This document shows, piece after piece, positions 30,501 through 33,500 of a stretch of DNA of 64,000 nt. Made by a program: the position numbers and the translations under genes. Below the pieces are notes generated by a model. The model ran no database searches and had not been told where the DNA came from. It worked only from the letters and a program-made list of their open reading frames with translations. Position 1 is the first letter of the stretch; each line of letters opens with the position of its first letter. Location: assembly GCA_042577545.1 (NCBI GenBank), contig JBHPDT010000002.1:1574-65573 (forward strand), in the 5' to 3' direction. The stretch comes from Candidatus Omnitrophota bacterium (GTDB lineage: Bacteria; Omnitrophota; Gorgyraeia; JABMRG01).

Positions 30501-33500
30501 GTCATACGCTCGCCAAAGTAATATAACATTTGAAGATGTGTTTTAATCGCTTCATCATTATCACTAGAGCTATATCTGCACTGAATCATATTTCTTATAA
30601 AATCAAAATGATTATAAAGATCTATTTCGTTATATTGTTCTAAAACAAACCTAACATCAGCAGAATCAATCCTTCTGCTCAAGGAAGCTCCCCACCCGCT
30701 TTGGTTAAGATAATCATGTATTGCAGATACGCACTCGGGCAGAAACCATGCCTCAGTTGTTTTACTCAAGAATAATAAATCAAAATCATAATAGTACTCT
30801 AACAAACACCAACCATTCTCCTCAAAAAGATATCTGCTGCTGCCAACTATCTGCACCTTGATATCAGCGGCGCTATCTGGCATCTCTGTATGCAAATATA
30901 ATCTAGCAATATCGGATAAGAGCTCTTCAAGCAAAGCAATATTAACCTTCCCATCCCGTAGCATTTTATCAACATCAACCTCAATACTGCTAAAATCCAA
31001 TCCGGCTGATGAGGGTTTTGCTCTATGTTCTTCAACAGCTCTTTCCAAAGATTCGATCTCTTGCCTCGCGGAATCTGTTAATCTATCCCAATATAAATCC
31101 TTTATTATTCTTATACTCAACAATACATATAATCCATCATCCTGAATTAGTCTTACAATATTTATTTCAGGTAACTCATACTTATTGAAGTTTTCCACAA
31201 GCTCAGGATCAATATCTCTTAAGTGGGCTCTCATATAATTGGGTCCACGCTTCCTAAAAGCGGCTATAATGGGATTAATAGCTTCTCTGCGTTCCAGCTC
31301 TTCAAATGGGATACATATAGTTCCTTCTGATAATGCGTTTGCTTTATCCATATTCATATTAAAAAGTTTTAGGAAAACTTTTCCATCATGATGTATATAA
31401 GTCTTTAAGCAAAGCATCTCTGGCAAAAGCGGGTGCCGACTTAAACCAACCGTATCATCACCTTCGCTATGATCATATATTCTAACCGCGAACCTTTCAT
31501 CAATAGAAATCTGTTGTTGAGCGCGGCCTATATAAACAAGGGTAAGAAATCCTACGGGTATCTCTATCCTTCTATCCTTATCTATATTAAGAGATAAATG
31601 TTCAGTTTGGCGCGTTTGCGACCGCCATTTCTCAGGATCCATTTCAAGGATTTTATCAATAGGCTTCAAATCAAATTCCGCGAAAAAGTCCTGTTCTGCA
31701 CACATTTGTGCGTTAAGCGCTTCATATGTCTTTCTTGTATTCTTCCAAAGAACAGTTTGAAGATGTAATCCTTGATTAATTTCATCAAGATCTATTAGTC
31801 GCTCTTGATTTTTCACAAATATATTGATAAGATTTGCAACACCTGCGATGTTCGGCGCGTGAAATTCATCAACTGAAGCTGTAATATAAAATGACTTAAT
31901 TCTATTTTTACGATCTCTTCCTTCAATAGCAGATTTGATTCTATTGAGTACATATTCAGCTCGTTTCTTATCGAGCGCCCACAGACAATTGGTCCATATA
32001 GAAACCGTGCAAGCTTTGGTTCTCGCGATAATTTCACAGAGCGTGTCTAAGGTAGCGTCGTTCAGCAGCGGTTCTCCATCACCAGTGAATATTAATGAAT
32101 CTATATCCGTCTCATTCAGAAATCTAATTATATTTTCTGTCTTATCATGAGATGGGCAACGGCTATGATCAATCATAGACGCATCTTCAGGAAGTTTACG
32201 CGAATCACCTAGACAGGACCTACAATTTAAATTGCAGTAACCAGCCAAACAAATTACCGCCTCCGATCTTGGTAGTGATGATACCTCAATATTTGAGCTT
32301 AACATAATCTCTTTTAACCGCTCCTTTGCCTTAGCAGGAGTTACCCCATCAACATCTACCTCAATACTACTAAAATCCAAGCCAGCTGACGAGGGTTTGC
32401 CAGCCAGCTCAGCTGTAAAGACAGATGCGGGCATTGCACCTATAGCATCAATCGGTTTTCTAACAACAAGATGCTCATCCCATGTCTCTTTTTTGCGGGC
32501 ACTAAAGGCGTCTAGGCTTATGATGTTGTTTATACCGAGAACCATCTCTATAGCTTCTTGCAGCCATCCTCTTCTAATAAATTCTACTGTTATCTCATGA
32601 TTTGATGGTAATCTTCCAAAAATATCCTTATAAGGTATGCAAAAGGCTTCTATTTCGTGCCTTAATCCATTTAAACTCTCTGGTTGGTTCTTATAATAAA
32701 GTTTTATTTTCACATAGCGAAGGCTGGTATATAGATATGCACGAAAAGAAGCTGCGGGATAGGTATCTCTTAATTGATTACGGTATATATTGAAATGAGC
32801 GCCTACATACATAAGAGTTTCCATTGCCGCGCTTTGTTCATCATCTTTTGGAAATCTGTTGCTTAATTCTTTAAAATGAGCTGCTACAAGTTTATCAGCT
32901 ACGGCGCTCCTTATCTTTTCATCAAGAGAAAAAAGTAAATATCCTAAGTCGTCATAGTCTTCGTCTTGCCAATCTGCTTGGGCATTATCGCTTAAACGCT
33001 TGAGAATGCTCTTTAGGCTTTGTTTATCCTCTTCTATCTTTAGTCCGATCTGCTTTCTGAGTTCTTCTCTTCTTTTAGGGTCTGTAATATAAATATCCAG
33101 GAGTGAATACAGAACCCTTGAAGGAACGTTTCTTAAAAGCATCCTAAACCTTACATAATCTTTTTCGTTATCCGAAAGTTTCTTTTTGGATTCTGGGAGG
33201 CCTAGTTTGTATTCTAACATAGAATCAAAGCCCTGCCTCATAGCATCAATATTTATAATAAATCTCACAATGTCTTTATTTGAGACTGCGAAATCCTTAT
33301 GGGATGCTCTTAAATCAAGCAATTTTGCTGAATATTCCTCTATCTCATTTTGTTTTCTTGAGCTGTGAAGTATAAGAGCTATATGGGTACCCTCTGTGAT
33401 GCCAAGCTTCTTAAGGGAGGCTATGAGCTTTTCTATCTCATCCTGTTTTCTTGAGCTGTTCAGTATAGGAGCTATATGAGCGCCTTCTCTTATGCCGTGG

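Follow-up and report, generated by a model that had tools for sequence, protein, structure and literature searches.

How can an enzyme domain that depends on a reduced iron-sulfur cluster form part of a polypeptide that appears to leave the cytoplasm? The question is raised by a stretch of 64,000 nucleotides from contig JBHPDT010000002.1 of a Candidatus Omnitrophota bacterium (assembly GCA_042577545.1), referred to here as the window, in which a single open reading frame (ORF) at 27557-37501 on the minus strand encodes a protein of 3,314 residues. Radical S-adenosylmethionine (SAM) chemistry requires a reduced cluster, and a first-pass annotation had placed a radical SAM domain in the middle of this protein, behind an N-terminal signal or anchor. 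It offered two ways out, a membrane-anchored enzyme facing the cytoplasm or post-translational processing, and called either unusual. Here we find the module to be a divergent yet genuine radical SAM domain from a previously uncharacterised clade, whose nearest solved relative is EpeE/YydG, and to sit among other modules in a protein with a Sec-type leader. The best reading overall, to which we give about an even chance, is that of a Sec-exported modular effector whose modules act where iron-sulfur assembly and reductant exist. Coordinates are those of the window, and all features of the 3,314-residue protein lie on the minus strand.

A divergent radical SAM module in mid-protein

The mid-protein placement of the domain was borne out. 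The region first reported, 31035-32385, corresponds to about residues 1706-2156 and falls within one module of 460 residues (residues 1704-2163; 31013..32392) with an EpeE/YydG-like fold. The radical SAM [4Fe-4S] ligand motif CX3CX2C (C1756, C1760, and C1763; residues 1756-1763; 32213..32236) lies in AGYCNLNCRSC and is the sole such motif in the protein. A GGE-type SAM-binding motif, TGDGEP, follows at residues 1806-1811 (32069..32086), and SVDEFH at residues 1876-1881 (31859..31876) is a family-specific motif that aligns with SYDEYH of EpeE/YydG. Both members of the motif pair on which the domain was originally proposed are therefore present, although their spacing is about 50 residues and not about 70. 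The additional cysteines that had been pointed out, CEIIARTKACTVSIWTNC, are also there, but they are not invariant in 12 aligned relatives and therefore do not constitute an auxiliary-cluster motif.

An exhaustive HMMER search of 1.84 billion representatives recovered 65 relatives of the module. A word-indexed homologue search with the module came back empty, though the collection contains the identical protein; a scan of genome contigs with the module gave no relatives, and a metagenome scan with a narrow alignment gave six short contigs only. The family alignment comprises 12 relatives, which share 17-33% identity with the window module. Its invariant positions include C53, C57, C60, G104, G106, E107, and S173 in module numbering; S173 belongs to the S-x-D-x-x-H motif, in which D175 and H178 are nearly invariant. 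The preservation of CX3CX2C and G-x-GE at this level of identity is an argument that cluster and SAM binding are under selection. The window module itself has G-D-G-E rather than G-G-G-E.

Curated family profiles divide on the window module. A Pfam scan of the whole repetitive protein missed the radical SAM signal, and Fer4_12 (PF13353) was seen only with the excised module (E=3.6e-8, 34.2 bits, cut-off 22), for which PF04055 gave 13 bits, under its cut-off of 29.5. Among the 12 relatives, 11 are matched by both PF04055 (E<=0.01) and Fer4_12. Fourteen NCBIfam families, all described as radical SAM, match residues ~33-180 of the module, each far below its family cut-off. The AlphaFold model made with the alignment reached a pLDDT (predicted local distance difference test) of 78.8 and a pTM (predicted template modelling score) of 0.82, and most beta/alpha elements within residues 80-230 have a pLDDT of at least 90; prediction from the single sequence was uninformative (pLDDT 44). 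The predicted structure has a partial (beta/alpha)6 TIM-barrel core, and its top Foldseek matches are all radical SAM enzymes. The profile matches and the invariant residues go well beyond chance, and we regard the radical SAM identity of the module as near-certain.

Relationship to EpeE and to other radical SAM enzymes

The top match of the profile of the 12 relatives, with E=2.4e-17, is EpeE/YydG, a Bacillus subtilis peptide epimerase (PDB 8ai1-8ai6); MoaA, the viperins, anSME, and NifB follow at a clear distance. EpeE is also the top Foldseek PDB match of the module model (E=3.6e-10, TM-score 0.68 on the target), followed by MoaA, SkfB, and anSME. The two have in common the CX3CX2C, GGE, and S-x-D-E-x-H motifs, an 'HHDG' hairpin, and C-terminal helices. 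However, EpeE holds an auxiliary [4Fe-4S] cluster in a T-SPASM (extended twitch) domain and uses Cys223 as hydrogen donor, whereas in the module family the three radical SAM cysteines alone are invariant and no other is nearly so. The 'HHDGEIYPCC' of EpeE aligns with 'DxDGxVxxxCR' in the family and with HHDGKVFLKLFN in the window module, where no cysteine is found. The relative P0002 also lacks a cysteine at the hydrogen-donor position, and six of the 12 relatives keep one there. Their settings differ as well: EpeE, at 34 kDa, is a cytoplasmic enzyme that comes with a small precursor peptide and an operon of its own, whereas the module is internal to a signal-peptide-bearing protein of 3,314 residues. 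No peptide, protease, or ABC-transporter cassette like those of epeXEPAB lies near the gene, whose neighbours are an IS110 transposase, rpoD, dnaG, amtB, and glnA.

A profile search had been suggested as a way to place the domain in a SPASM/twitch or other subfamily. It did not lead to SPASM/twitch, as the auxiliary-cluster cysteine set was found neither in the alignment nor in the family scans. No SPASM Pfam family matched any of the family members scanned, N_Twi_rSAM gave 33 bits against a cut-off of 170 and covered the core only, and conserved C-terminal cysteines were not seen; we rejected the assignment because the cysteine set is missing. The module falls short of a full EpeE, SPASM, or twitch enzyme. 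The nucleotide-acting viperin/pVip and MoaA families gave weak matches to the N-terminal half (viperin_w_prok 2.9e-5, MoaA 4e-6, and pVip 4e-6); membership in them was rejected, as all scores fall well short of the family cut-offs and both profile and fold lie much nearer to EpeE. An anti-phage defence system was also considered and rejected, since PADLOC returned only generic methyltransferase and radical SAM matches.

A Sec-type leader without an anchor

The hydrophobic N-terminal segment noticed by the first-pass annotation is real and is the sole hydrophobic segment of the protein. The N-terminus, MNTIMRYLLHKLKLILVVSLLANQSAG followed across the predicted cleavage site by VYPKP, combines three basic residues, a 9-residue hydrophobic core, and small residues at positions -3 and -1 (QSAG). 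We judged the leader by inspection and Kyte-Doolittle hydropathy, taking an h-region of 7-15 residues as the Sec criterion. Residues 1-27 (37421..37501) resemble a Sec-type signal peptide, with R6, K11, and K13, the core LILVVSLLA, and a putative cleavage site after NQSAG and before V, and thus have the basic n-region, the h-region, and the c-region with small -3/-1 residues expected of Sec (type I) signals. None of the 19-residue windows across the 3,314 residues reaches a mean hydropathy of 1.6, and the protein is without a transmembrane segment. An anchor is therefore excluded and the architecture is of the signal-peptide-only type, so that the membrane-anchored, cytoplasm-facing enzyme initially envisaged is unsupported. 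The question of signal versus anchor is answered, as far as sequence rules and hydropathy go, in favour of a cleavable Sec-like signal.

Other types of leader were tried and rejected. A signal anchor would need ~18 or more hydrophobic residues, and the core is too short; the lipobox cysteine of a lipoprotein is missing; and RR, needed for the S/T-R-R-x-F-L-K motif of Tat signals, occurs nowhere within residues 1-30. Tat is the usual route for exported Fe-S proteins. The basic residues N-terminal to the core predict that the bulk of the protein is translocated, and leader-bearing relatives have canonical sites (AYA, ASA, or GLA) at the same place. Sec export of the protein is probable on these features. 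Another exported-looking ORF in the window (61227-62738) has a similar leader end, QTAG before V.

A leader motif and a C-terminal tail in Omnitrophota relatives

The signal is followed by LRPPA at residues 37-41 (37379..37393), an instance of a post-signal 'A/T-LRPxA' motif common to other leader-bearing Omnitrophota proteins. Close relatives of the module come from Omnitrophota and carry radical SAM or 4Fe-4S annotations, and many of them have a signal-like leader and then A-LRP[IVMP]A, with AYA or ASA directly before LRP. Like the window protein, many also end in a C-terminal [AS][AS]A tail, forms of which include AISAAA, AIASSA, ALAASA, AIEAAA, and LYAASA. Leader and tail also occur together on non-homologous neighbour genes, which encode a 1,018-residue WD40 protein, an 843-residue B12-binding protein, and a 911-residue protein. 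Across all the loci examined, the tail is present in 2% of 555 ORFs; among these, it is present in all five non-redundant ORFs that have a hydrophobic leader with ALRP or TLRP. A cruder test of the association on the 65 HMMER matches gave p=0.003. This co-occurrence of the leader with a specific C-terminal tail suggests a sorting pathway.

The organisation of leader-bearing genes varies among genomes. At the locus directly upstream of rimP-nusA-infB, four separate genes bear leaders in one genome, and those of them that are complete each have a tail of their own; another genome has a single leader-bearing fusion of 5,327 residues there. In P0006, of 515 residues, the module forms a nearly stand-alone leader-bearing protein. 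Loci with the shared leader and tail in other Omnitrophota genomes include L087:2793-11548, L088:5688-10765, and L091:10001-25984. A radical SAM paralogue at L087:8385-9940 is broken into two ORFs, of 102 and 412 residues, and is probably a frameshifted pseudogene; its C-terminus reads ...YFASSA-LRPMAEAN, the tail motif running directly into the leader motif.

More distant, stand-alone relatives (L092-L094:~1-7542 and L095:404-8355) lack the leader. They lie either within Tn7-like transposon cargo (TnsB/TniB/TniQ), with a dCTP-deaminase-like gene and a flavin reductase next to them, or alongside genes for a carbamoyltransferase and a phosphoribosyltransferase-like protein. In the relative P0013, the module is fused to NUDIX. 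The wider clade thus shows hints, from its gene neighbours and fusions, of a nucleotide-related role.

Modules and their junctions

Junctions of the form K-[SAP]-SSAG, seven in all (residues 213, 700, 1704, 2164, 2412, 2769, and 3030), lie at module boundaries of the protein. The SSAG of the K-S-SSAG junction at residue 213 is encoded at 36854..36865 and those of the K-A-SSAG junctions at residues 700 and 2412 at 35393..35404 and 30257..30268. The radical SAM module is bounded on its N-terminal side by the K-P-SSAG-LDFSSIEVD of residue 1704 (SSAG at 32381..32392) and on its C-terminal side by the same sequence at residue 2164 (31001..31012). The two remaining junctions are K-P-SSAG-LDFSSIEVE at residue 2769 (29186..29197) and K-A-SSAG-LDFNSIEVD at residue 3030 (28403..28414). 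Over 56 nt, the junction DNA is conserved at 79-82%, against 70-75% for the flanking domain copies, and is thus the better conserved of the two. The relatives P0002 and P0003 have K-x-S-S-[ASP]-G junctions of the same type. Post-translational processing, the second of the two options first put forward, is compatible with these seven conserved but only putatively cleaved sites. The K-x-SSAG junctions, the leader motif, and the tail motif are new here.

The modules themselves are diverse. The N-terminal region (residues ~42-212; 36866..37378) is without a family match and stops at the first K-S-SSAG junction. It is followed by a SAM-dependent methyltransferase module (residues 213-445; 36167..36865), which matches Methyltransf_11 above the cut-off (E=3e-7). 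A domain of ~250 residues, which we name DUF-A, is present in four copies that are 36-54% identical to the first: copy 1 at residues 440-699 (35405..36184), copy 2 at residues 2164-2411 (30269..31012), copy 3 at residues 2769-3029 (28415..29197), and copy 4 at residues 3030-3314 (27560..28414), the last ending in the tail AISAAA at 27560-27577. DUF-A contains the motif [GV]-S-S...D-x-[DE], and S-S-R-Y-L-F...G-W-C, D-x-[DE], and Y-Y-F-G are invariant in it. It has no match in Pfam, NCBIfam, PADLOC, or PDB sequences, and a word-indexed homologue search with its alignment was empty; by motif only, it resembles nucleotidyltransferases.

Between the first DUF-A copy and the radical SAM module lies an array of mTERF-like repeats (33339..34966), with 17.6 tandem copies of a 93-bp (31-residue) unit whose consensus is HIALILQSSRKQDEIEKLIASLKKLGIREGA. 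Pfam mTERF matches the repeats with E=1.1e-8 (34.8 bits, cut-off 23.1), and variation among them clusters at positions 4, 7, 13, 20-21, 24-25, 28, and 30-31. The array may be a nucleic-acid-binding solenoid. An inositol-monophosphatase (IMPase)/CysQ-like module with DPIDG at residues 2541-2545 spans residues 2412-2768 (29198..30268), and Inositol_P matches it with E=4.8e-6 (26.7 bits, cut-off 27). The same modularity is seen among relatives, where the radical SAM module recurs with other partners and one module of P0003 recurs in P0018.

Comparison with known long proteins and effectors

Long and giant Omnitrophota proteins with methyltransferase, NUDIX, and radical SAM domains behind signal peptides have been recorded in two preprints (bioRxiv 10.1101/2023.11.21.568195 and 10.64898/2026.06.07.730766), and the localisation paradox is therefore a documented trait of Omnitrophota. 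PF04055 was reported in 90 of 916 long Omnitrophota proteins, 9% of them signal-peptide-only (10.64898/2026.06.07.730766). West-Roberts et al. listed Radical_SAM among the top-20 domains of such proteins and predicted most domains to be extracellular, some of these predictions being ones that 'seem highly unlikely', and Seymour et al. linked giant ORFs to predatory or parasitic lifestyles. The description of the arrangement as unusual thus holds for bacteria in general but not for long Omnitrophota proteins, in which radical SAM domains have already been catalogued.

Like the 'Archaeovorin-type' long/giant proteins, the window protein comes from Omnitrophota, tiles cytoplasm-type enzyme domains behind an N-terminal signal peptide, and poses the same localisation and cleavage puzzle. 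Unlike the giant class, which has at least 10,000 to 30,000 residues and multiple transmembrane helices, it has 3,314 residues and no transmembrane helices, and the C39/S8 peptidase, HEAT, and glycosyltransferase content of that class was not detected in it by Pfam and NCBIfam scans. It is a small, transmembrane-free new member of the long/giant multi-enzyme class of Omnitrophota. Keyword searches of the Omnitrophota papers cited here did not find the junction, LRPxA, or tail motifs, and in these papers, searched in the same way, radical SAM modules were nowhere placed near EpeE.

In mode of working only, the protein is also comparable to MARTX and polymorphic multi-effector toxins, in which unrelated effector modules lie between conserved junctions and are shuffled among relatives. 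However, Pfam and NCBIfam scans of all segments found neither the autoprocessing cysteine-protease domain nor the RTX repeats nor the type 1 secretion signal of MARTX, and junction cleavage in the window protein is putative.

Proposed mechanism and alternatives

Transcription of the gene would start from a perfect sigma-70-type promoter match (TTGACA-17-TATAAT; 37565..37593), a consensus match only, whose downstream end is 64 nt upstream of the ATG. The N-terminal Sec-type signal would then export the unfolded polypeptide across the inner membrane, with no anchor to hold it back, as the sequence rules and the conservation in relatives suggest. The seven K-x-SSAG junctions, which from their motif may be processing or hinge sites, would part independently folding modules, namely, the methyltransferase, the four nucleotidyltransferase-like domains, the mTERF-like repeats, the radical SAM module, and the IMPase-like module. 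As all recognisable modules depend on cofactors of the cytoplasm (SAM, a reduced [4Fe-4S] cluster, and nucleotides for the motif-only nucleotidyltransferase-like copies), they would act only once delivered into a cytoplasm, that of a prey or host cell. In the recipient cytoplasm, the radical SAM module would gain its cluster and reductant and would carry out reductive SAM cleavage and the abstraction of a hydrogen atom from its substrate. Delivery and junction processing are conjecture. A more specific version, in which K-x-SSAG, A-LRPxA, and [AS][AS]A-COOH form the recognition code of a dedicated Omnitrophota sorting/processing pathway, by which modules are exported, cut, and delivered into prey or host, is in our estimation unlikely.

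Several points weigh against an exported effector. The excised module scores 13 bits with PF04055, below the cut-off of 29.5. The evidence for export and cleavage consists of sequence rules and conservation, and the acquisition of a new Fe-S cluster in a foreign cytoplasm is conjectural. No protease domain, secretion system, or injection apparatus was found within the 64-kb window. The substrate is ambiguous, as the fold argues for a peptide or protein and the companions of the distant relatives point to a nucleotide. In the literature searched, no Sec-exported radical SAM enzyme working in another cell came up as a precedent; the nearest case is the HXS defence system (PMC13128918), in which a cytoplasmic radical SAM enzyme matures a signal-peptide-bearing periplasmic effector. 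Finally, for the radical SAM content of the transmembrane-only class, 10.64898/2026.06.07.730766 favours a location on the cytoplasmic face.

It is a minor but real possibility that the protein is not released at all and is retained at the producer's cytoplasmic face, with Fe-S assembly, SAM, and reductants at hand. Retention would supply the reduced cluster that radical SAM chemistry needs and the cytoplasmic cofactors of the methyltransferase and radical SAM modules, which the IMPase-like and motif-only nucleotidyltransferase-like modules would likewise need. It agrees with how 10.64898/2026.06.07.730766 reads the radical SAM and regulatory content in long proteins that are transmembrane-only and with the doubts of West-Roberts et al. 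about extracellular predictions. However, a 9-residue core in a protein with no 19-residue window at 1.6 cannot span the membrane as an anchor, the basic residues ahead of the core predict an N-in, C-out orientation, and the relatives have canonical signal-peptidase sites after AYA and ASA. The pairing of the leader with a specific C-terminal tail, suggestive of a sorting pathway, also speaks against a retained protein. Omnitrophota belong to the PVC (Planctomycetes-Verrucomicrobia-Chlamydiae) group, some members of which have internal compartments. The leader could in principle target such a membrane-bounded, or an otherwise reducing, compartment of the Omnitrophota cell, and the LRPxA leader motif and [AS][AS]A tail are indeed unlike those of known Sec-only proteins. 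We consider this extremely improbable: these ~0.2-micrometre cells show no sign of compartments (Seymour et al.), and the window gives no support.

Two further explanations concern what the module does rather than where it goes. As its nearest relative, EpeE/YydG, modifies a ribosomal peptide, the module might act in cis or on its sister modules in the producer cytoplasm, before or during export, much as a maturase of ribosomally synthesised and post-translationally modified peptides that is fused to its substrate, for instance by epimerising or cross-linking residues of the polyprotein, and then leave as inert cargo. Substrates of Sec export must be unfolded, and translocation would be blocked by a mid-chain domain already folded and loaded with its cluster. 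P0006, nearly stand-alone and leader-bearing at 515 residues, offers little else to modify, and the hydrogen-donor cysteine needed for epimerisation is missing in the window module. Action in cis therefore seems to us quite improbable, even though the long repetitive stretches of the protein could serve as substrates and HXS offers a precedent for a cytoplasmic radical SAM enzyme that matures an exported effector (PMC13128918). It is also very unlikely that the module is a radical SAM fold that has decayed, is catalytically dead, and serves as a structural or binding domain of an extracellular scaffold. Decay would account for the PF04055 score under the cut-off, the loss of the auxiliary-cluster cysteines and of the Cys223 equivalent, and G-D-G-E in place of G-G-G-E, but CX3CX2C and G-x-GE are invariant in relatives only 17-33% identical, including all the leader-bearing ones, and the model is confident through the core.

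Implications

Omnitrophota have not been cultured, are ultra-small, and probably live as predators or parasites, and the presence of cytoplasm-type enzymes on their exported-looking polypeptides is a recognised puzzle. At 3.3 thousand residues, the window protein is small for its class, transmembrane-free, and sharply divided into modules. These traits make it a tractable model, and its seven near-identical junctions are explicit candidate cleavage sites. Should the motifs prove to be a sorting code, they would be the first defined cleavage or sorting signals for the long/giant proteins of the phylum, and the protein would be the first secreted radical SAM effector. A module active only after transfer to another cell would represent a new kind of effector chemistry. 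If, instead, the protein is retained in the producer, topology calls based on signal peptides would need revision for the whole protein class. The motif code of junctions, leader, and tail is the part worth following and could make processing testable.

Genomic context

The closest matches of the window's RpoD are from Omnitrophota metagenome-assembled genomes (55-61% identity). From its fifth residue (M5; window 37489), the 3,314-residue protein is identical to GenBank MFC1806826.1, annotated as 'methyltransferase domain-containing protein [Candidatus Omnitrophota bacterium]'. The HMMER search listed P0001 at 95% identity; we rejected this value, since direct global alignment with the window protein showed the sequences to be identical. 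The window is a chromosomal stretch in which one strand carries all the large ORFs, and its genes include rpoD, dnaG, glnA (twice), amtB, GOGAT, gdh, obg, and RNase E/G. Scans for Rfam families and tRNAs across the window found nothing. An IS110-family transposase (DEDD_Tnp_IS110 and Transposase_20; 37992-39044, minus strand) adjoins the giant gene upstream, before rpoD-dnaG.

The giant gene is flanked by a direct repeat of ~60-90 bp, at ~37565-37662 and ~27291-27386 on the minus strand, with the sequence ATGACGnGGTGAGGTTArCGTAAATTTyCTGnCCCCTGAnCCCTG...TTGACA. Both copies end in a strong sigma-70-type promoter match (12/12 and 11/12), and the 20-mer core of the repeat occurs at these two places only in the window, with 0.01 expected. 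The repeat may represent a promoter cassette that was duplicated, or the scar of an insertion. In the 620-bp spacer that follows the gene (26934-27557), a promoter match precedes a terminator-like hairpin at 27227-27250; further downstream, a similar T-rich stretch, 'ttttttaatgag', not called by the terminator scan, lies upstream of an ORF of 170 residues (26422-26934) for which family scans gave no match.

Three paralogous pairs were also observed in the window: two adjacent 7TM-GAF-HD(HD_5) signalling proteins at 46936-51137, glutamine synthetases at 10640-12076 and 22124-23656, and GltD-like Fer4_20/Pyr_redox_2 proteins at 3436-4869 and 15513-16958.

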